Of a DNA stretch of 64,000 nucleotides, positions 710 through 57,500 are shown in pieces. The notes beneath the pieces are model-generated. The model saw only the letters and a list, made by a program, of their open reading frames with translations. It made no database searches and was not told where the DNA came from. Position numbers and translations under genes: made by a program. Within the stretch, counting starts at the first letter, position 1; the number at the start of each line of letters is the position of its first letter. This stretch comes from Stegostoma tigrinum (taxonomy: Eukaryota): positions 10,192,421 to 10,256,420 of the forward strand of contig NC_081397.1 of NCBI RefSeq assembly GCF_030684315.1, written 5' to 3'.

Positions 710-777
710 ACAAACACTTGAAGGAACAAGACAATGTATCATTTCTTCAGTACAAAGCTCCTCCTAACAAACAGCAG
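710..777 (+). other. Degenerate paralogous exon copy (68 nt, donor ATATGT)
   Basis: Homologous to 30351-30431, with an internal deletion and a GT>AT donor. Confidence 0.45.
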
Positions 778-9005: not shown

Positions 9006-9657
9006 ACCCACAAAGTCAGTGAAAAGCAGCTAGACTGTCACTGCTGGTTGGTTTACTTTAATTTTATGTGCAAACACGGGACTAAATGCGCAAAAATATC
9101 CGTTTCCTTTTTGCCTTAACCTAAAGAAAACTAGAACAGCTGTCGGAGGGGAGTAATAAAGTTTTACTGCAGGGACAGCGACTTTAAATAGTAACTCACA
9201 GCGGTTTCCCTATCACTATGCCGACAGGGAACAAAAGACATGCGCTAACTCCCCGCAAGAAAGGGGCCGTTCGAGACTAAACCGAGCCTCCTCAGAGGAT
9301 CGAATGAATACACTCGTGTGAGATTAGGCAAAATTTCAATTGCACGATCAGAAATATAAAAATCGTTTGTATATTTTGGTGGGCTTTTCGAATTGGCCAC
9401 TGTTTCCCAACATCCTCATTCGTCAACTTCAGTTGCAGCTGGGGAAACGCCAAGGGAAGCAATTGGCAAGCAAAGGCGTTTGAATCGGAAATTTATAAAA
9501 TGTTAGGTACAGTACTTGAACTGTGTTGTGATTACTGAGCACTTATAAACCTGTTTCACAACTCGGGGGAATTATTGGGCCTGAGAGATGCACTAAGTTT
9601 CTGTAACAGCGGTGACATTGAGACATAACATCAATAGTATGCTGTGGGTTTATATTA

Positions 9658-10209
<552 letters not shown>

Positions 10210-17366: not shown

Positions 17367-17490
17367 GCGCATGCGCGATAATTTTTCACTCCCCCGCCCC
17401 AAAACAACCAAAAAAGAGGCATGTTGTGACTGGAGGAGCGCATGCGTGAGGCCCTCCACCAGCGCTGCCATTGAGTTGCATTGACTCAGT
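17367..17490 (+). promoter_or_regulatory. CpG-rich promoter with NRF1-type motifs
   Basis: GCGCATGCGC 17367-17376 and GCGCATGCGT 17438-17447; TGACTCA 17482-17488. The second motif recurs at 46409-46418. Confidence 0.65.
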
Positions 17491-17522
17491 GAGTGGAAGC
17501 GGTTTGTTTGAAACAGGCCGCG

Positions 17523-17586
17523 ATGGAGAGACCAGCGCCCAGGGAAGCGAGGGAACAGCAGGCTCCTTCCAGCAGCGCATCGAGAT
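17523..17586 (+). other. Putative first coding exon of an unidentified gene (MERPAPREAREQQAPSSSASR, phase 1)
   Basis: Kozak GCCGCGATGG, open 21 codons, consensus donor GTGAGT at 17587; near-identical copy in unit 2. Confidence 0.55.
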
Positions 17587-17958
17587 GTGAGTCTGGGACA
17601 CAGAGGGGGCTCCGAGACCGGCATTGATTCGGGCTCAGTTCAGGGAGAACCGGGGACTGTAGGTAAGAGGCCGAGCGGAGCAGGAACTGGTCCCGGAACT
17701 TGGAGTGAGCGGCCTGGGGGCGGGGAGAGAGAGGCCTTTCTCGGGCTGTGTGTGGTCCTGCGGAGGGAGACACAGCGGCAAGAAGCTGCTGCTGGGGGTC
17801 AGGCTTGCGATATTTAATTCTCCGAACGCTGATGGTAATTCCTCGTTTAGCTTCTGTTTCACGTTGTTTGTTGCGAATTGGCATTGAATCGTAAAGAAGT
17901 CACAGTACAGACAAATGTGTTAATCATGTAAAGGATAAACGCAGCACTCGTAGTGTGT

Positions 17959-18663
17959 GAGAGATAATGGGAACTGCAGATGCTGGAGATTCCAAGATAA
18001 TAAAATGTGAGGCTGGATGAACACAGCAGGCCAAGCAGCATCTCAGGAGCACAAAAGCTGACGTTTCGGGCCTAGACCCTTCATCAGAGAGGGGGATGGG
18101 GGGAGGGAACTGGAATAAATAGGGAGAGAGGGGGAGGCGGACCGAAGATGGAGAGTAAAGAAGATAGGTGGAGAGGGTGTAGGTGGGGAGGTAGGGAGGG
18201 GATAGGTCAGTCCAGGGAAGACGGACAGGTCAAGGAGGTGGGATGAGGTTCGTAGGTAGCTGGGGGTGCGGCTTGGGGTGGGAGGAAGGGATGGGTGAGA
18301 GGAAGAACCGGTTAGGGAGGCAGAGACAGGTTGGACTGGTTTTGGGATGCAGTGGGTGGGGGGGAAGAGCTGGGCTGGTTGTGTGGTGCAGTGGGGGGAG
18401 GGGATGAACTGGGCTGGTTTAGGGATGCAGTGGGGGAAGGGGAGATTTTGAAACTGGTGAAGTCCACATTGATACCATATGGCTGCAGGGTTCCCAGGCG
18501 GAATATGAGTTGCTGTTCCTGCAACCTTCGGGTGGCATCATTGTGGCAGTGCAGGAGGCCCATGATGGACATGTCGTCAAGAGAATGGGAGGGGGAGTGG
18601 AAATGGTTTGCGACTGGGAGGTGCAGTTGTTTGTTGCGAACTGAGCGGAGGTGTTCTGCACCT
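17959..18663 (-). mobile_element. Penelope-like element 3' fragment; 15-bp TSD
   Basis: Matches the 3' end of the 22.5-24.4 kb element; GCACTCGTAGTGTGT at 17944-17958 and 18664-18678. Confidence 0.9.
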
Positions 18664-18976
18664 GCACTCGTAGTGTGTTTCGTTTTAAATAGTGTCTGTT
18701 GTCCTTCCTTTAAATGGGTAGTGTATTGGGAGCTGGGTATTGAACTGTGTAAGCATTCAATTCATTGCATCTTAATAAATTGTTTCAGAATTTCGCATAA
18801 AGAAAGAGACGAGGAGGAGCTCAGGTAAATTATGGAGCCAGCCTCTTCTCTGTTTGAATTGTTGGCTTTAAAACAACGAAGTGTTATGAGTATTAATTCA
18901 ATTTTGCCTTGATCAGTTTTAATATTTGCAAACTCGTTGGATGTTGATTTACAGGAGAATTCTGTTCTTCCTCCAG

Positions 18977-19055
18977 GCAAATACTTGATGGGCCAAGGCA
19001 ATTTCATATTTACTTGGTACAGCATGTGTGACCAGCTGCTCCAACCAAACAGCAG
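18977..19055 (+). other. Putative internal exon (79 nt) KYLMGQGNFIFTWYSMCDQLLQPNS
   Basis: Pyrimidine tract ttcttcctccAG acceptor and CAG|GTATGT donor; in frame with exon 1. Confidence 0.55.
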
Positions 19056-19559
19056 GTATGTTAGCACTGTCAGAGTGGAGAATTTACTTTCCACAGTCAT
19101 AGGGGTAAGACTTGCATTGAGCTCAAATTCCAGATATCTACATTCAATCCAAGGGCCAAACAACATCAACAAAACCCAGTGCAATTCCAGTAAAGTTCGT
19201 CTTTGAAAGCCCATTGCCATTTTTAGCATTTGAAGAGGGATTAATTGAATCTTCATCACAAATATATGCTCACTAACTGCATTGAATGCTTGGTGAGGAA
19301 GGGCATTTTTAAAGTTACAGTCAAGGTATATAAATAGATCAAGTTGTCACTGTTACAATATAACCATGTATGGAGTGGATATTGGGTACAGACATGGAAG
19401 GAAACTTTAGATGTTATCAGTGACTAAGGAAGACAATTAATAAACAGAAGATTCTGGAAAAGCACAGCAGGTCTGGCAGCATCTGTGATGAGAAATCAGA
19501 GTTAACGTTTCAGGCCTGGTATGCTTCCTCAGTTCTGAACAAAGGCCACCAGATCTGGG

Positions 19560-30350: not shown

Positions 30351-30431
30351 ACAAACACTGGAAGGACCAGGACAATGTAACATTGCTTCAGATCAAAGCC
30401 AGTGTGACCAGCTCATCCTAATAAACAGCAG
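30351..30431 (+). other. Paralogous putative exon copy with 1-nt deletion (81 nt)
   Basis: Splice sites intact (cttcctacAG, CAG|GTATGT), but the shared frame shifts to TAA. Confidence 0.45.
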
Positions 30432-37100: not shown

Positions 37101-37594
37101 AACTGCACTCGCATTTTCACATAGGAGACACTGACAGACATTGGACAAACTATCCCTCAATAAGCCTGAATCTCTCAATGACACAAGTGCCCTGTGGAAC
37201 TCAGGGAGAGATGAAACAAAATAATATGTTATGCACAAAAGACTGTCATGAGCAGAATAAAACACACTGCCACATTTAAAATCTCACAGATACTGTGTTC
37301 CAGATATAATTAAATGACAATAACCAGTTGATTTTCGAGTGAGTTAGGAGTCAGATCCGTGTTCAAAATTTGGTTTGTGTCTCGCATTTCGTTGCAGATC
37401 CTGACAGATTCACATTGTGTCCCAAACTAACCAATCACAGAGAGGCTGCTGTCATGCTTGACATTCTTTTAAACTACCCAATCATGAATAAGACTTTCCC
37501 TCATCCCTCATTAGCATTGCTGACGCGATCAGGCTATAAAAAGCGAGCTCCGAGCCCGCTTTCGCTTATTTTGTGTCTGAAAGTGACTGTCAGT

Positions 37595-37975
37595 ATGGCA
37601 GATGAGAAGAAAGCACAGCAAGCCTCCAAGAAGGGCGCCAAGAAAATCATCAAGAAGGCGCCGGGGAAAGCCGGCAAGAAAAGGAAACGATCCAGGAAAG
37701 AAAGTTACTCTATCTACATCTACAAAGTGCTGAAGCAGGTTCACCCCGACACCGGCATCTCCTCCAAGGCGATGAACATCATGAACTCGTTCGTCAAGGA
37801 TATTTTCGAGCGTATCGCGGGGGAGGCTTCCCGCCTGGCCCATTACAACAAGCGCAGCACCATCAGCTCCCGGGAGATCCAGACCGCGGTGCGGCTGCTG
37901 CTGCCCGGGGAGCTGGCCAAGCACGCCGTGTCGGAGGGTACAAAGGCGGTGACCAAGTACACCAGCTCCAAGTGA
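37595..37975 (+). CDS. H2B: Replication-dependent histone H2B (unit 2), 126 aa
   Basis: [14 protein letters not shown]...[10 protein letters not shown]; variant octamer 37510-37517, TATA 37535-37541. Confidence 0.98.
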
Positions 37976-44345: not shown

Positions 44346-44509
44346 TTCATGAACTGCAACTGCACCCGAACTGATGGTCAGTTAAAATGAGAGGGGGAAC
44401 CTCACACTGATTCCTTGTAGAATGTGTGAGAAGAGCTGGGTGTAAATGAAGCCGAGAAAGTGTGTTTTGAGTTATTCAAATCAATTAATGTCCGTATCTC
44501 CACCGGAAC

Positions 44510-44662
44510 TGGGACAGGGATCCTTTGATCCGGGCCCAGCTCTCTCCTGAGAGATGTCGGTGTCTCTGACAGGAGCTTTTGGGTTCAGGTGGTTACATGT
44601 TGCACCGACAGGTTCATTTCTTTGCTGCTTTCTTGGTAACTTCGGTTTTCAGCTTGGCCTTC
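44510..44662 (-). pseudogene. H1: H1 3' remnant (last ~15 codons, 3' UTR, degenerate stem-loop)
   Basis: Aligns to ~11920-12071. 44614-44662 reads KAKLKTEVTKKAAKK*; the stem-loop has decayed to AGCTCCTGTCAGAGAC (44562-44577); the rest of the gene is absent. Confidence 0.9.
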
Positions 44663-46155: not shown

Positions 46156-46483
46156 TTCAAAATTATGCTCTAACTTTTATTCTATATGAAAACAGTAAGG
46201 AAGGTGACATGAGCAGAACAAAACATTGGCACATAGTTCACAATTATGCGCCTAATCTGCAGCACGCTTCATAGAATCATCATAGAATCCTTACAATGTG
46301 AAAACAGATACTTCGGCCCAACTAAAATTCCACACCGACCCACTGAACAGCAGCCCCTCCCAGAACCATTGCACCGCCATTTCCCTTTGTCACACACAAC
46401 CCAGAGGAGCGCATGCGTGAGGCCCTCCCCCAGCGCTGCCATTGACTCAGTGAGTGGAAGAAGTTTGTTTGAAACAGGCCGCA

Positions 46484-46547
46484 ATGGAGAGACCAGCGCC
46501 CAGGGAAGCGAGGGAACAGCAGGCTCCTTCCAGCAGCGCATCGAGAT
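46484..46547 (+). other. Paralogous putative first exon with mutated donor (ATGAGT)
   Basis: Same 21 codons as 17523-17586; donor GT>AT at 46548. Confidence 0.5.
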
Positions 46548-47246
46548 ATGAGTCTGGGACACAGAGGGGGCTCCGAGACCGGCGTTGATTCGGGCTCAGT
46601 TCAGGGAGAACCGGGGGCTGTTGGTAAGAGGCGGAGCGGAGCAGGAACTGGTCCCGGAACTTGGAGTGAGCGGCCTGGGGGCGGGGAGAGAGAAGCCTTT
46701 CTCGGGCTGTGTGTGGGCCTGCGGAGGGAGACACAGCGGCAAGAAGCTGCTGCTGGGGGTCAGGCTTGTGCTTTTCATCCTCTAAACTGGGATGGACATA
46801 GTGCCGTGAACAGTGGAAACACAGACTAGAGGCATGTTATAACCCTGAAAAGGACAGGTATTTGAGTCCCCAGGTTACATTTCTCACCTGAAACATTTAA
46901 AATAGCGCCCTTTGTTCTTCCTTTTCACAGGTAGTGTGTTGTGAGCTGGATATTGAACTGTGTATGCATGCCTGTTTCTTCGGATAGCCCCATGTATGAA
47001 AGTACAGTTGTTGCTCAGTTTCTGATTCTCACTCAGTTGATTTCGAATTATTTCAGGAAAAAAAAAGTACCATGAGAATTCCCAGAAAAGGAGCAGATCT
47101 GGAGAACAGGGAATAAAGCCTCTGGTTCTGTTCAATTTGCTAGTTTTCTTCTTTTAAAAACAGACACACGTCCCAATGATTATGAACTTGATGTTATGTT
47201 GATTAGTTCAATACGGCCAGACTTTCTGTATGTTGACTTCCTCCAG

Positions 47247-47328
47247 GCAAATACTTGAAGCACCAGGATGATGTTGTATTTCCTCGGTACAAAGCCAAGT
47301 CTGACCAGTTACTGCTAACAATCAGCAG
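47247..47328 (+). other. Paralogous putative internal exon (82 nt) KYLKHQDDVVFPRYKAKSDQLLLTIS
   Basis: cttcctccAG ... CAG|GTATGT; open in the same frame. Confidence 0.55.
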
Positions 47329-48769
47329 GTATGTAGCCCACTGACGTTGACACAAGTTTTGAAGATGGATAGACTGATTGGTCATCCGAAATAGACACTC
47401 AGGAACAGCATTAAATCTGCATTTTATAAGGGCATTTTCAAAGTTACAATCAAGACAAACAATAGATCATGCTGTAACATAGTTTCAACAGCCATACCTC
47501 AGTGAGATGTTAAGTACAGAAATGGGAAGAACCCGTGCAACAAGAGTTACTAAAGTGGATGAAACATGTTTATATGAAGTTTATCAGTGACTGAGAAGGA
47601 CAGAATTAATCCTTTGATGAATAATTCTCTCCTCCTCTCACTCTCACACACACACACTCTGACTGACTGAAGGTGTATGTTACAATGTGGAACAACTAAA
47701 TTGTTTTGTGTTCACTGCAAATCATAGAAAATGATAGACTCAAAATGATCTCCACTAACACCCTCAAGTTACAGAACTCTGCAGCACAAGAGAAAGGCCC
47801 GTCAGCCCATTGCGTCTGCACCTTTTTTTTCAATGAACAACTTTTAAAATCCCAATCAGCCAGCATTCTATTTCCATGAATGTATTGAGGCTGAAGAGGA
47901 ACTGCTATCCTCACCCTTATCATTTCTTCACCTTACAGGAGTTAATATTTCTTTTTTTTTCTTCAGTCTGGCAAGAAACATTGTGTATCTCTTTGAATTT
48001 TTTGTTTCAATTTTCTACAAAGGGCTTGATGTTCATGTCAACCTTCCCTACAGCACAATCACATTAGTCCTCATGGTACGGACAAATGTCAGTGTAATAT
48101 TAATCCCTCAGTCATACAGAGTCAGTGAATATCTACTGTATCTGAGATGGTTGCCGACATCACGAAGCTAGCACTGCAGCTATTCGCAGGCTGATAACTG
48201 GAGAAATAATGTCAAATTGGCACTAACAGACACTGGCAGTGAGTGGAAGAAGTTCACAATTCCAACAATTACTGGAAACTAGTATGCAGAATGTAATGTC
48301 CCAGTGCAGGCACAGTGGGCTGAATGGTCTGCTTCCACGCTGCACCTCACCTTGATTCTGATCCTGGTGATGAAGTAAATGATATTCTGTTGTATAGAGT
48401 ATTAGTTTAAAAATGTAACATAGAAATAGACAGACAGGTGCAAAACAAAATCTTTAAGAAAGAGCACTAACGATGTCCAATACAAAAAAAAATGAATCTA
48501 AATGTCTCATTGATACTACTGAAACCTGAAAAAACAAATCCCGTACTGAGACAGAGAATCAGCATATGATACAATCGGTATATAAAACCCACACTCAGCA
48601 CACAAACTGTAAATTGTGTTGTTGATTCAGAATGGTTCTCATAGGAAATCAGTCCCATTTGTATGACCCCTCCTAGATCCTGCCAACTGATAACGAACTA
48701 AGAAGTCTCAAAATGCCGAAGAGATTGAAATCCAGTCTCAACGCCGTATTACCTGTGTCAGAATGTGTT

Positions 48770-49945
48770 GCATATTCACAGAGAATATTACTGGTTGCAA
48801 GAGAATCAAGGCACATTGATACACAACAGTAGAAACTGACAGATACGGATTGATACCTACACTGACTCATTCACATTTCAGAAACACACAAAAGAAAATT
48901 GATGATGAATCACATATTCACATTCAAATAACAGAAACTGACAGGCATGGACTGATAATTTGACTTGGCCATTCACACAGCAGAAACTGACTGGAGAGAT
49001 GGGGAAATGCAGCCTCACATTTATGTTGCAGATACTGACAGCAAGAATAATGTTGTTACACACAAATTCACAGAATAAAAACTGACTGTTACACATTGAT
49101 AAATGCATTTGCCTATTCAAAGCCAGAAACTCATAGGTGGAAATTGATGGGTAAAATCACACATTCCCAAAGCAGAATGATTGTTTGTAATAGTCTTGGT
49201 TTCAAATAACTGATCGGGCACAGATTGGTAACTTCACTCACCGATGCACAGAGCAGAAACTGACAGGCATAGACCAATAACTACACTCATCTGCTGCCGT
49301 AGGTACTGATTGACAATGACATGTACATATTCACACAGAAGAAACTGACAGGTATTCACTGATAACTAAACTCATATATTGACATAACAGAAACTGCAAG
49401 TGATAGACTGAGAATTACACAAACATATTCACAAAGCAGAGGCTGAAAGTGTACAGATTGATAACTACACAAACATATTCACACAGCAGTCTGAGAGGGA
49501 TAGACTGATTGTTAAACTCACATAGACAGAGCAGAAACTGACAGGCAGAAATCAGCAGTGAAACTCTCATTCTTTTAGCTGAAACTGACAGGTAGAGATC
49601 AATAACTAAATCCTCACGTTCACAAACCAGAAACTGATAGGGGCAGAATAATAATGACATTGACATCTGCACGTAGAAGAAACTGACATGGACAGAATAA
49701 AAATATCACTCCCAGGCTCATTTGACATCATCTGAGTTGTTTTGTTCTGTACATCCTTGCTGACTGTGATCGGCCTGTACTGCTCGTAAACAGAGCATTT
49801 CACTGTCTCTCGCTACATTTGAATTTATTAAAAAAAATTAACAGAGCATATACTGACAGGTATATATTTGTAACTACACTGACGCATTCAACAAGAGGGA
49901 GCTGACAGATATAGATGGACAACGAAACTCGCATATCCATATACC
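48770..49945 (+). repeat. Degenerate 49-bp minisatellite array
   Basis: Same consensus units. Confidence 0.85.
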
Positions 49946-50212
49946 CACTAGCAGTATGTAGTCCCACTCATGCAGCTGTATCAGTGTTGGTTAGCTTTTG
50001 GATCTCACTCAACCGGGTATTCGAATTTTAAGAAAAGAAAATAGACAAGGAGAAGCTCAGGCTAGGAGTAGAATCAGACCGTGGTTCTGTTCAAATAAAT
50101 AGCTCAAAACAAACAATCCTAATGAATAATTAACTGAATGTTACATTGGCAATATCACTCTGATCAATCTCAACTGATGTTAGTTTACAGGAGGTATTCC
50201 TTCTTCCTCCAG

Positions 50213-50294
50213 GCCAATACTTGAAGGACCAGGACAATTTAGTGTTTTCTCAGTTCGAAGCCAATTGTGACCAGCATCTTACAACAACCACCAG
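50213..50294 (+). other. Paralogous putative internal exon (82 nt) QYLKDQDNLVFSQFEANCDQHLTTTT
   Basis: ttcttcctccAG ... CAG|GTATGT; open in the same frame. Confidence 0.5.
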
Positions 50295-53184
50295 GTATGT
50301 TGCACTGTCAGAGCATAGAATATCCTAGCCACAGTGATAGCAGATTCAATGTCACACATTGAATGCAATTTCCAGAGAGATGTGTTCTAACCAAGAGTCA
50401 AACACCATTGAGGAAATACCAGTGTATATGTCTTATCTGTACCGTCACTTCCAGCCACCCAGTTCTAAACAATTTCACTTTGGAGGAATGACAGACTGAA
50501 TCCTCATCCAAAATATATACACAGGAACAGCATGAAATCTGCATTTAGTCAGGGTACTTTTAGTGTTACAGTCAAGTGAACACATAGATGATGCTGTTAG
50601 TTTGACCAACCACATGGGAAGTAGATATGGAGTACAGATATTGAAGCAAACATTTCAGTCAGAAGTAACAGACAGACAATTATTATTTCAATGAATATTT
50701 GTCTCAATAGTCACAAAACTTAAATAATGTGAATTCCAAATGCACGTGCTGTGCCAAAGACTGACATTGAGAGAATTGTTAATATACACTCTCACTCCCT
50801 CTCTTGCACCCTCCTCTCTCTCTCTCACTATCAAATGCATAAACCATCCCAACACACATTCCAACAAATAATAGCCATGCAATACCATATACATTGCAAG
50901 CAACAGAAACTGTCACATCTGGAATGATTTCTACTCACAGAACCATTGTCAGAGAGGCCTGCATTCCTTCACATTATTGAGTCTGTACCGAGAATTCTCA
51001 TCCCATTCATTCAACATTTCATTCACACAAATGTATGATAGCAGCAGAGGAGCTGCCATCCCCACCTTTATCGCAACATCATTCTCCTTTTCTTCACCTT
51101 TCAGGAATAGAATTTGTTTTGTCTTTTTCAGTCCAGCAAGAAACCTCGAGTACCTCTTTCAAAATTAATCTCAATTTATTGTAAAGAGCCTGACATTCCT
51201 CCTGGCCCTCCCTCGGATGTATTGCAGAGAAATACCAAGATATCTGAATACAATTTTCACAATAAATCAGTTTAATCAAGTGGTTACCTTTCGAAGCAGT
51301 GCACAAAATAAAAATAGACAAAATTGGTTTGCTTGGTAGGTTTGTGAAACACTCCTTTTGTTTCAAAGCAGAGTTGAACAGTGTTGATTGTTCAATAAAT
51401 TGAGTTTCACCCTTTAAATCTGCTGCACTGCAAGACAGAAAATAAACTTCCTTTTCCTTTCCACTTCCCTTCCAGAGAACAACACAAGAGTACCAGTAAT
51501 TGCTTCCACCATCACGGCACAGAGCAGGGTCATGTCCTGTCTACATCAGGGAATAAGTTCCCCGTTTGTCTTTTCTGTCCAAGCGACACTGTGTGATCAG
51601 GCAGCAGCAATGCAGTTGAATTGTTCACTGCCATTGGCTTTCACAGTTTACACTGATTGCTACTTTAGCATTACTCAGAAAAGCATATCACTACACACTG
51701 AAAAAGAAACGGATATTATTCTGACAGTCAACACTTTATATCATTAATCCCTGTTCAACTCTACACTATACAAGTTACAAAGGCCCATTGTGTTTCCAGT
51801 CTTGAATCTGAGGAACAGCACAGAGTCCCTTCTGTAGCAGTGTGTTGCCTTTCACTTGCACATGATTCCCACAGGCACCAACAATTAATGATCTTCGGTG
51901 GTTTCCCATTCACGACAGGAGACGGGAACTGAGATACAGACTGGCAGCACGAGGGAAAACTCACTCACACACAGCCAGTGGATGCTAAAAGGAAAAGAAT
52001 GAAGTACGGCCTCACAGTAATTTCCAGATATGAACTGACTCTCAAAATCTCTGATTACACCTGAGGATATTGGACTGTGACAGTGCCCAGTAGTGACAGA
52101 TAGATTCTACTGCACACTCAACCTCATGCACAATGTAAAAACAAACTGAGACTGAAATGCAATGCAGTTCAGTGCAATTGAAAAGAGTTTGACAGAGTTT
52201 ACTACTCCGACACAAACCACAACTGAACATACGAAAATGAGATCCATGTACTCTCCCTGAGACTGTGGGAAACATATCAAAACTACCACAATCGTTATGA
52301 AAAGCCAGATACCCACAGAACTTATGTCATATTGGCCTTTACAAATAGACGGTGACAATGAGTAGATGAAGTTCACATTCCTAACAATTACTGCGGAACT
52401 GCTGCATAAAAAATTCCCAGTACAGAGACAGTGGGCTGAATGGTCTGCTGCTATGCTGTACCATATCTGTGATTCTGTTTTTGGTGAGAAACAAGCAGTT
52501 TAATCAGTGGTACCACAGATCTCAGGCTGTCTGACCAAATAGGAAATATGTGACAATTTGTCAGAATGGTTCTCAGAATAAAGCAGTTCCCCTCCTGTTA
52601 TCACCCCATGTCCTCAACTTCTCCATCCCCCTCACCTACCACACGGACTGACACTCAACTCATAAATCACACAATGCAGAAGACATTAAGACGCAGCCTC
52701 AACACCCTAAAAATAACCATCACAGAGTGAATCATACAGTCACAGAATACTACTGGCCTTCAGAGATTTAGCCATTTTGATACATGAGGAGAAACTGACA
52801 CGTACAGATTGATAACTACACCCACTTGTTCGTATTGCAGAAACACACAAATGATGACAACACATTGACTACAATGTAAAGGTGTGACTGTAGTTATCAG
52901 TCTCTCTTGGTTTCTGCTAATGTCAGTCATGCATTCGCATTGCAGGAACTGTCAGGGAGAGATGAATAACTTCACCCTCATTCTCAAAGCTAAAACGGAC
53001 ATACACAATGATAACTACACTCCCAGTTTCACAGAGCAGAAACTGACAAGTATAGTCTGTTAACTAGACTCTCCTATTTACAGAGCAGAATCTCACAGGT
53101 ACATGTTGGGAACAGCACCCACACATTCACCCAGCAGGAACTGACAGGTGTACTTCGATAAGTGCATTTACACACTGACAAGGC

Positions 53185-54559: not shown

Positions 54560-57500
54560 ATTGTAGAAATGATTTGGAGTTGGGTATTGAGGATAAAGTC
54601 TCTAAATTTACAGATCATACTAAGCCATGGAGAAGAGTGCATTGTGAGGATGATACTGAGTGACTTCACAGGGACATTGACAAGTTGGCCAAATGGGCAG
54701 AGACCTGGCAGATAAATTTCAATGCAGAAAAATATGAGCTTATGCATTTTGCTGAGAAAAATGCAAAGAAACAATACAAGCTTAAGGGTACAGCTTTAAA
54801 GGGAAAATTGGAACAGAGAGATCTTGGGGTTCATGTGCATCGTTCTCTGAAGGTGGCCAGGCCAGTTGAAACAGTTGTGAAGCAGGTTCAAAGGATCTTT
54901 GAGTTTAAAAATAGAGGCATTGAGTCTCAAAGCAAGGAAGTAATGCTACGCCTCTACAAATCATTGCTAAGACCACATTGCTCAGGCTACGCTTGTGTTC
55001 AGTTCTAGACACCTTATTTAAGGAAGAACACTCTGGAGATGGCTTAAAGGTGTCACTAGAATGACAGCAGGAATGAAGGATTTTACGTTCAAAGAAAGAT
55101 TAATGAAACCAGGCTTATTCTCCATGGAGCAGTGGGGTCACAAATGGGGGTGTTCACAATAATGAAGAATTTTGAGAGGGTAAAGTAGAATACTCTGTTT
55201 CCACTATGTCAGTAACCAGGGGTACAATTTCAAATTTGTCACCAAGACAGCTAGGAGTGAGATGAGGAGAAACATCTTTGGAGCATTGTTCGGATTTGGA
55301 ATGCACTGCCTGGGAGAGTGGTGGAGGTGGATTCCATATGAGGTATGAAGAGAGAGCTGGATATATGTTTGAAAATGATGAAGTTCGAGGGTAATGAAGA
55401 TCAGGCTGGGGAATAATCACACCTCTGATAATAGCTCACCACAATTAAAAAATAAATGCAGAGTAGATTCAATTCATTGGCTCATCTGCCCTGATACACT
55501 CACCAGGAGATCAAATGGATACTCAAGTTGGGAATGGACAGCACAAAATCTCAAATCCCTGCCATCAAGGGTCAGATCATGCTGCAGCAGAAGAGATTGG
55601 CCCACTCAGAGTTATGTGAGAGACAGTTATTCCGATGGCTTCTCAAGGCAAATTCATGTTTGGAGTTGATGTCTGGCTGAGTGAATGGGAACAAAGCTTA
55701 GCCATTTCTCAGCTGCAGAAACCTGACGCTCCTCTGTCCTCTCTTCCTTCTCCCCCTTATTTGCTGGAAGGAACAATTGCTATCCATCAATTTGTGAGGC
55801 ATTGAAGGGATTCTTCTGTGCTGTCTCACAATGTCCGCGGAAGATTGGCATAAACATTTCCCTCTTCACCTTGACCTGGTTCCTCATCCCCTCGCATATC
55901 TGTGTGCCTCAGGGTGGTGTATGTGATGCAGGATGGTTGCTGGTCTGCTTGCTCAGCCTGAAAATAGGACAATACAGAAACATAGTAAATGAGGAGCAGG
56001 AGCAAAATCGGTGGCCTCATGGACAGTGAAGGTGGTTATCTCAGAGTACAACGGGAACTTGATCAACTGGGCCAATGGGCCGAGGACTGGCAGGTAGAGT
56101 TTAATTTAGACAAATATAGAGGTGTTGCATTTTTGCTGAGGCAAACCAGGGCAGGTTAATGGTAGGGCCCTGGGGAGTGTTGTCAAACAGAGGGATCGAA
56201 GGGTGCAGGCACATAGTTGCATAAAGTGGAGTCCCAGGCGGACGGCAAGTTTGGAACAGTTGCCTTCATCAGTTCCAACACTGAGTGTAGGAGTTGGGAT
56301 GTTATGATGTGGCTGTCCAAGACATTTTGCCCCTAAGAACTCGATGCTGCTACTTGAACAACATTCACTACTCTGATCCCAACCACTTTCTGTGGCAGAG
56401 AATCCCATTGGATCCCCACCCTCTAGGTGAAGACATTTCTCCCCACCCTCAGCCCTTCCCCATCTCCTTTAGACTGTGAGCCCCTGAGGGTGGACTCATG
56501 TGTCCTTAGCCCCATGTCCAGCCATCAGCAACATCTGTGTTTACCCCTGTTAATTCCCATTGAAATTTCACAGGTTTCTATGAGATGACTCCTCATTCTT
56601 CTAAACTCCAGTGAATATAATCCTAAGCGATCCAGTCTGTCCTTATCCTTCAGTCCTGCCATCCCAGGATTCAGTCTGGGAAACCTCGGCTGCACTCCCT
56701 CCATAGCCAGGACATCCATCCTCAGAGACGGAGACCCCAGACTGCAGACACAATACAGCAGGATGTGGTCTCTCCCTGTACAATTTCAGCAAGACAGCCC
56801 TGCTCCTGGACTGGAACCTTCTCACTATGAAGGCCAACATCACATTTCCATTCTTCACCATCTGCTGCTCCTGTAATGCTCACTGTCACTGACTGGTGTA
56901 TGAGGTACATCCAGGACTTGGAGCACCCCCACATCCCAATCCGGCGGATAAAAACCCAATTTCCTGGTTTTGCACCCAAAGCAGATAACGTCACTCTGAT
57001 CTACATTGAACTGCATGAATCATTTCAGTGTTGAGCCAACAAGCTGGACATTCGGAGTGGTTGGATGGTGAACGTGGGGATATGGAGGGGTGAATGGTGA
57101 GAAAAACAAACTTTATCTGGAAGACAGTGAGAGTTACGGGATGAGCAATTAATATCTGGGGTTGTGACACAGACCAGTTCCTCTTAGAAAAGCACACAGT
57201 TGGAACAAGCCTAAAACTGACGATGACAAATGTTATTTCTCTGTACTTTGAACAGGGTGTGGCCAGCTCTGCCAAGGTGGCAAGGGGATGCCAATCTCAA
57301 AATGTCCTTGAATGGATTGACATGCTCGACCTGAAGGTAATGAGGAGTTTGCAAAGGGTTAAGAGTCACGTGCAGAGCAGATCAGGTGAGAATGGCAGAT
57401 TTTGCTCCCATAAGGACCATCAGAGACAGGAATGGGAGTAGGATATTCGGCCCCTCGATCCTGCTCCACCATTCAATAGGACTGTGGCTGATCCAACATT

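Follow-up and report, generated by a model that had tools for sequence, protein, structure and literature searches.

A multicopy module in the histone repeats of Stegostoma tigrinum is most likely the 5' end of a spliced non-coding RNA unit

Results

Histone units and the E1 block

The window analysed here is a stretch of 64,000 nucleotides from Stegostoma tigrinum (G000:C56:10192421-10256420; the contig label C56 is used throughout). Two histone units, both with stem-loops, lie in it: unit 1 with H2B, H2A, H3 and H1 at 5.4-12.7 kb of the window and no H4 match, and unit 2 with H2B, H2A, H3 and H4 at 37.6-42.8 kb. The H3 gene of unit 1 (9655-10185, minus strand) carries a 1-nt insertion near its 3' end in comparison to that of unit 2, and because of it the last residues are out of frame. 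Each unit is accompanied by a CpG-rich block, named E1, which is oriented away from the histone gene closest to it (H1 at 4.8 kb for copy 1, H4 at 3.6 kb for copy 2). An earlier reading of the letters, here called the sequence-only reading, had placed the module downstream of H1 in each unit; this is right for unit 1, but unit 2 carries H4, and no more than a 3' remnant is left of its H1 (44471-44662, minus strand, with a decayed stem-loop). The features of the block are as follows.

17367-17376, plus strand: distal NRF1-type site with the full GCGCATGCGC consensus, predicted from sequence
17433-17807, plus strand: E1 block copy 1, with a proximal NRF1-like site at 17438, the first exon and the 5' part of the intron; probably homogenised among copies
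17523-17586, plus strand: ATG and 21 codons up to the main donor (GT at 17587), without coding constraint
17663-17668, plus strand: alternative donor GTAAGA (extended E1); runs X2 and X4 show a joint to E2 from the corresponding position of copy 2, 46623
46404-46769, plus strand: E1 block copy 2, with ATG at 46484, the main donor mutated to AT at 46548 and other donors at 46624 and 46858

The presence of the CpG-rich block in both units was confirmed: 17433-17835 matches 46404-46795 with 92.3% identity over 403 nt. The 375-nt core reaches 97% over ungapped columns, in agreement with the earlier impression that the block is about as similar between units as the histone genes (98.4% for H2B, 97.2% for H2A). 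The NRF1-type motifs noticed before were also recovered, with GCGCATGCG occurring four times in the window (at 17367 on both strands, at 17438 and at 46409) against 0.04 expected by chance and 0/100 shuffles; the site at 17367-17376 has the full NRF1 consensus (PMC10810270). The E1 block is likely to be a CpG-island promoter, to which NRF1 is predicted to bind. In copy 1, the ATG at 17523 sits in GCCGCGATGG and is followed by 21 codons plus 1 nt and the donor GTGAGT at 17587, just as the sequence-only reading had described with its strong Kozak context; in copy 2, however, the donor reads ATGAGT at 46548 and the GT is lost. By eye, we also noticed an 18-nt match between E1 (46447-46468) and the intron of module 2 (48237-48256), which may be due to chance. 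An inverted copy of unit 2 with its module lies about 40 kb further (10.23-10.29 Mb of C56), with mapped query segments that are 100% identical.

E2 exons and candidate downstream exons

Downstream of E1 come one to three copies of an exon of about 82 nt, named E2. The two exon-like segments proposed earlier do have AG/GT ends (79 and 82 nt) and are open in phase 1, but the assumption of a single second exon has to be given up, since the window contains five E2 copies.

18977-19055, plus strand: E2 copy a, 79 nt; AG and GT intact, second acceptor 22 nt upstream
30351-30431, plus strand: E2 copy d, 81 nt, frameshifted; second E2 of module 1
47247-47328, plus strand: E2 copy b, 82 nt; joints 46547^47247, 46623^47247 and 46857^47247
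50213-50294, plus strand: E2 copy c, 82 nt, alternative entry at 50184; joints from 47328 in X1, X2 and X4
710-777, plus strand: degenerate E2, 68 nt, donor AT; third E2 of a module starting upstream of the window
50930-52394, plus strand: possible read-through or terminal exon of module 2; AATAAA at 51261-51441 and at 52577; 1.4-kb contigs of depth 31-47 in X1, X2 and X4
57256-57300, plus strand: candidate downstream exon with undefined 3' end, preceded by a pyrimidine tract and CAG; weak, 22/30 to the mixed loose end after E2c
37584-37975, plus strand: H2B, ATG at 37595, preceded at 11 nt by an AG acceptor; module 1 may end here; acceptor used by RefSeq models in paralogous units

Family size and linkage to histone genes

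A 23-mer from the E1 block has 150 exact matches, and the block is present in at least 150 copies. Among the first 100 matches listed, 95 are on C56, four on C53 and one on C2, that is, 99 are on two histone-bearing contigs. Matches to E2 run along C56 and also occur on C62, with single ones on C1, C2 and C4, and E1 nearly always has E2 within a few kb downstream. In 1.26 Mb, the common layout was two E2 and E1, then H1, then E1 and two or three E2, then H2B, H2A, H3 and H4, then E1 and two E2. The earlier idea of one module per repeat therefore fails, as three modules per higher-order unit are common. The flanks of the modules, once described as unrelated or diverged, are indeed diverged, but they are diverged paralogues rather than unrelated DNA.

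The regions examined were selected by E1/E2 matches and form a non-random sample of copies that are not independent; in these regions, all full E1 copies lie close to a histone gene, within 10.8 kb on C56/C62 (32/32) and within less than 11 kb on C53 (4/4). This linkage of 36/36 full copies in cluster DNA, together with the spliced joints described below, supports the earlier view of a non-histone module co-amplified with the histone sets. The module as a dispersed transposable element, which we also considered, was rejected: the copies of the 23-mer are not scattered but cluster on histone contigs, as seen for the first 100 of the 150, with E1 followed by E2. Four copies depart from this pattern, with no histone gene in the 40 kb of DNA examined for each: on C2 a truncated genomic copy, on C1 a fragment of E2, on C4 a processed copy, and at 5.44 Mb of C56 a partial one.

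The C53 copies belong to an older histone cluster, in which E1 is 73-76% identical. At 17.07-17.18 Mb of C53, the cluster has a divergent H2B N-terminus, an H1 65% identical to that of the window and broken H4 and H2A matches. Two long runs identical between C53 and C56 E1 were not counted as conserved motifs, because C53 was found via one of them. An H4 motif was counted at least 44 times, all on C56 and C62; as the motif used differs from the real gene at two places, this count is a lower bound and gives no ratio. In a ray genome, histone and tRNA clusters occur together (10.1101/2025.06.08.657570); no tRNA genes were found in the shark cluster DNA (1.26 Mb and 0.12 Mb).

Transcription and splicing

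Four sequencing runs of one study (X1-X4, kind unrecorded) were aligned to 46300-52700 at 85% likeness. From the depth pattern and joints alone, X1, X2 and X4 are read as RNA: exon bins are deep and most intron bins shallow. The main joint, 46547^47247, reached a depth of 449 in X1, 666 in X2 and 402 in X4, and 0 in X3, which looks like a DNA run. The joints 46623^47247, 46857^47247, 47328^50213 and 47328^50184 were likewise found in the RNA-like runs and not in X3, and the E2^E2 joints have GT..AG ends. On copy 2, the main joint would have AT..AG ends; since the donor of this copy is AT, the joint is likely to come from paralogues with an intact GT, and at 85% likeness the joints are not assignable to a single copy. 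Loose ends and inserted letters in the contigs match E2 types of other modules, which indicates that several module types are spliced. Thus, the description of the module as a spliced gene holds for the family, with E1^E2 and E2^E2 joints of the copy-2 type and its paralogues in contigs that carry no start, end, strand or tissue, but copy 2 itself has an AT donor.

The consensuses of two loose ends, mixtures of two to three contigs, had no match in exact and near-exact searches. A third loose end matched a dispersed repeat on C56 at 27/27 positions following an AG. On the minus strand of C56 (10151512-10151800) an E2 is split by a short repeat; this E2 type seems to be transcribed as well, because letters of the repeat adjoin E2 in X2 and X4. 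Repeats that we take to be LINEs and SINEs were labelled by resemblance.

The copy on C4 joins E1 to E2 without an intron and starts near the proximal motif, which points to an old spliced RNA of the germ line. Its identity is 75-81% in E1 and 72-83% in E2. This processed copy (C4:103976580; L130:4580-5250) is fused to the tail of an old dispersed repeat. Transcription and splicing, as expected of a long non-coding RNA, are thus indicated by the joints in three RNA-like runs and by the processed copy; as for length (>200 nt), the 64 nt from ATG to donor and two 82-nt exons make 228 nt.

Coding tests

For the coding tests of E2, 72 matches were reduced to 64 distinct copies by removal of three duplicates and five further matches (two repeat-split exon halves, those on C1 and C4, and one 40-nt fragment). 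The acceptor AG is kept in 61/64 copies and a GT or GC donor in 59/64. The frame is intact in 33 copies, the other 31 being frameshifted or stopped. In pairwise counts on independent pairs, pN/pS was 1.22 (32 pairs, p 0.44) and 1.37 (14 pairs, p 0.15), with controls of 0.80-0.86 in the other frames and 0.77-1.35 in introns. Diversity by codon position was 0.24/0.27/0.27, and nine stop differences were observed versus 6.9 expected. Diversity was 0.11 at the donor, 0.26 in the exon and 0.33-0.39 in the intron, where the gap between exon and intron may partly reflect the way copies were found.

In E1, the ATG and the 21-codon frame are kept in 58/61 sequences (some counted twice) and are also present in the Chiloscyllium model P0016. 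The variants were 14 nonsynonymous to 5 synonymous, a ratio of 0.85-1.11 on few sites, as without selection. None of the four E1 copies on C53 has an intact frame: one lacks the ATG and 10 nt, and three keep the ATG with a 1-nt shift. The small protein under selection suggested by the sequence-only reading was therefore not borne out: pN/pS is about 1 in both exons, with no sign of purifying selection. Of the three options in that reading, the lncRNA fits best. As the splice signals are kept and the reading frame is not, the product of the module is very probably a non-coding RNA.

Alternatively, the module could be a lineage-specific small-protein family, largely decayed, in which E1, E2 (82 nt) and an E2 of 108 nt would give 36-residue repeats that a few copies may still encode. 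The strong Kozak ATG, the matching exon phases and the 33 open E2 copies agree with this, as do the upstream acceptor 26 nt away in most E2 copies, the frame-keeping joint 47328^50184 and the Chiloscyllium RefSeq model P0005, in which E2^E2-long is translated in frame. A coding ancestor is hinted at by the common E2, which has no stop in the frame set by E1 and a long form of 108 nt, and a decayed coding ancestor of the module is possible. However, apart from the pN/pS values, the open long form with AG was found in just 17/64 E2 copies, and Pfam returned no family for any of four peptides, in line with the earlier failure to recognise a domain. Among 1.8 billion representatives the protein search gave 16 matches, and none of the 12 examined was a characterised protein. 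There is also no last coding exon in common, and the predicted proteins are in different frames. In the window, the E1-E2b-E2c frame shifts, since two 82-nt exons stand in a row, and runs into a stop after 67 codons. We consider a protein-coding family distinctly unlikely.

Probable gene conversion of the E1 block

Diversity among E1 copies was 0.03-0.05 in the exon and 5' intron, 0.09-0.12 upstream to 17433 and 0.34 beyond 17810. E1 and E2 identity were uncorrelated (Spearman 0.09, 406 pairs). Regardless of module type, E1 identity was 0.95-0.96 within a chromosomal zone and 0.93 between zones, and permutation gave 0/2000 for zone and 424/2000 for module type. E2 identity tracks module type (0.77-0.79 versus 0.62-0.63). 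Four-fold sites of the histone genes differ by 0.06-0.07 within zones and 0.09-0.11 between them, and E1 by 0.04-0.07. Over the long term, as judged from the C4 copy, E1 diverges about as fast as E2. Since E1 similarity follows chromosomal zone and not module ancestry, the simplest account is that the block is likely homogenised by gene conversion within zones. Such conversion explains the similarity better than conservation of a product would, and selection on the promoter may add to it.

Downstream exons and the link to H2B

The downstream exons differ among transcripts and models of the module. The last part of model P0001 comes from a reverse-transcriptase-like repeat read on its opposite strand. 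In four computed RefSeq models (XP_059498003, XP_059498004, XP_059498468 and XP_059498483), one or two E2 are spliced to an AG 11 nt before the H2B ATG. The main role of the module could then be to supply H2B with a distal promoter and a spliced 5' leader. The AG is present in 11/12 distinct full-length H2B genes on C56, and of 21 modules with the next feature in view, 17 face a same-strand H2B (13) or H2A (4). In the window, the predicted E1-E2a-H2B form has an out-of-frame ORF of 54 codons over the H2B ATG, and the epaulette shark model P0021 looks similar by eye (weak match, E 0.02). The E2-H2B joins are, however, computed models, most modules on the H4 side (e.g., copy 2) have no histone gene downstream, and none of the six H2B genes on C53 has the acceptor. 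Moreover, the H2B genes whose sequence was printed retain their own octamer and TATA-like elements, and the shared orientation is inherited from one ancestral unit. We thus regard a main role as H2B leader as unlikely. Similarly doubtful is its broadest form, in which every histone repeat would have a constitutive NRF1-type promoter and a uORF-bearing leader running through the H2B promoter into H2B, with about 150 copies kept uniform by conversion, and would in this way control how much H2B is made outside S phase, either through a repressive long isoform or by supplying H2B independently of replication.

H2B models of 150-151 aa were also considered, because of their length, as E1-H2B fusions and rejected, as they are unspliced upstream read-through ORFs. 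Many of the RefSeq H2B models P0019-P0040 of carpet sharks (150-175 aa) begin at an ATG further upstream, within the H2B promoter, and their start is probably misannotated.

Small RNAs, the zinc-finger gene and taxonomic range

The module resembles small-RNA hosts in its tandem exon-intron units, which retain their splice sites but no reading frame. It could therefore be a host or precursor of snoRNA, miRNA or piRNA, perhaps in the germ line, with short exons that only serve release; the germ-line expression implied by the processed copy agrees with this. However, the only Rfam matches at gathering level were the histone stem-loops, with nothing in 46-54 kb and three weak matches far below threshold in 13-37 kb. 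In 984 alignments of diverged units, which did recover the H2B promoter as a control, no short intron element was common to all module types (top 30, by eye), and the folding of the E1 block was not unusual (z -1.3). Neither Rfam, which is blind to new families, nor the alignments gave a known or conserved snoRNA or miRNA in the introns, and we find a small-RNA host very unlikely.

A zinc-finger (ZNF) exon near E1/E2 has a matching phase, yet it has its own CpG promoter 7-10 kb upstream, without E1 match. A lone E2 lies 33 kb upstream of the ZNF exon, and there is no clear support for E1/E2 as 5' exons of C2H2 ZNF genes. A duplicated gene with five C2H2 fingers lies inside the cluster (C56:10546537, plus strand, and 10616243, minus strand), with AAGATGGCGGC motifs, presumably of the YY1 type, in the upstream CpG island.

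Relatives of the module were found in Chiloscyllium plagiosum and C. punctatum, including E1 and the E2^E2 join, with predicted frames that differ. Among the 12 protein matches examined (P0007, P0011, P0015 and P0018 being outside these), there were no credible relatives outside carpet sharks; matches P0009 and P0013 are repeat-rich and due to chance. A search with the E1 frame had no match, but this search was weak, as it missed P0016 too. No description of the E1/E2 module was found in the literature searched, which included few subscription papers and no supplements.

Discussion

Taken together, the E1/E2 module is probably the 5' end of a spliced multicopy unit in the histone repeats, most likely of a non-coding RNA. 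In the mechanism that we propose, the CpG-island block with its NRF1-type sites would act as promoter, and the first exon is spliced to one to three tandem 82-nt exons, as the joints of the copy-2 type and its paralogues show. The 3' ends vary: repeat-derived exons, read-through or, according to RefSeq models, H2B. The module spread by duplication along with the histone sets. Within each zone, conversion would hold the 375-nt promoter/exon-1 block to roughly the diversity of synonymous sites in the histone genes, whereas E2 and the introns are left to drift. The features kept are the promoter motif and splicing, not a peptide. If the unit has a function, it is most likely a local one, in which steady transcription and splicing of the spacer would influence chromatin at the neighbouring histone genes; we hold such a cis role and a plain passenger to be about equally probable.

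The module raises the question of how S-phase histone genes and a steadily active promoter can share a single array. It also offers a clean natural example of probable conversion on a promoter block of 375 nt next to exons that are left to drift. As regards annotation, several carpet shark models, both "uncharacterized" ones and H2B models with an extended N-terminus, are explained as products of this family. Its taxonomic range looks narrow.

Comparison with known systems

Histone repeats with rRNA genes have been described, namely with 5S genes in Artemia and Mytilus, with the rRNA cistron in boll weevil and with both in Potamopyrgus (PMC13525598). These repeats are alike in having a non-histone transcription unit within an amplified histone repeat. 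The non-histone passengers described in that review are rRNA genes, whereas the shark passenger is spliced, apparently transcribed by polymerase II from its own, probably homogenised, promoter-like CpG-island start, has no match among Rfam families and has so far been seen in carpet sharks alone. The main text of that review has no mention of "shark", "cartilaginous" or "noncoding".

Splice-constrained multi-exon lincRNAs (PMC4245815) resemble the module in that constraint falls on splice signals and not on a frame, and a cis effect via splicing has been proposed for them. As far as that source describes them, they are mostly single loci, whereas the shark family has at least 150 copies, tandem exon copies and a promoter block that is probably homogenised.

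The modules predicted to reach H2B can be compared with long undecoded transcript isoforms (LUTIs), for example at human MDM2 (PMC6469420), in the putative distal promoter, the upstream ORF and a predicted transcript through the proximal promoter into the main ORF; the upstream ORF in the leader is found in the predicted E1-E2a-H2B form (54 codons). LUTIs are described there with poor translation and cis repression, whereas the shark case comes from RefSeq models and concerns some of the modules. Finally, spliced and polyadenylated isoforms of the normally intron-less histone mRNAs are reported for HIST1H2BC, BD, BK and H2AC (PMC5100578). In those isoforms the introns lie 3' of the stop codon, whereas the predicted shark exons lie 5' of the histone gene, up to about 17 kb away.
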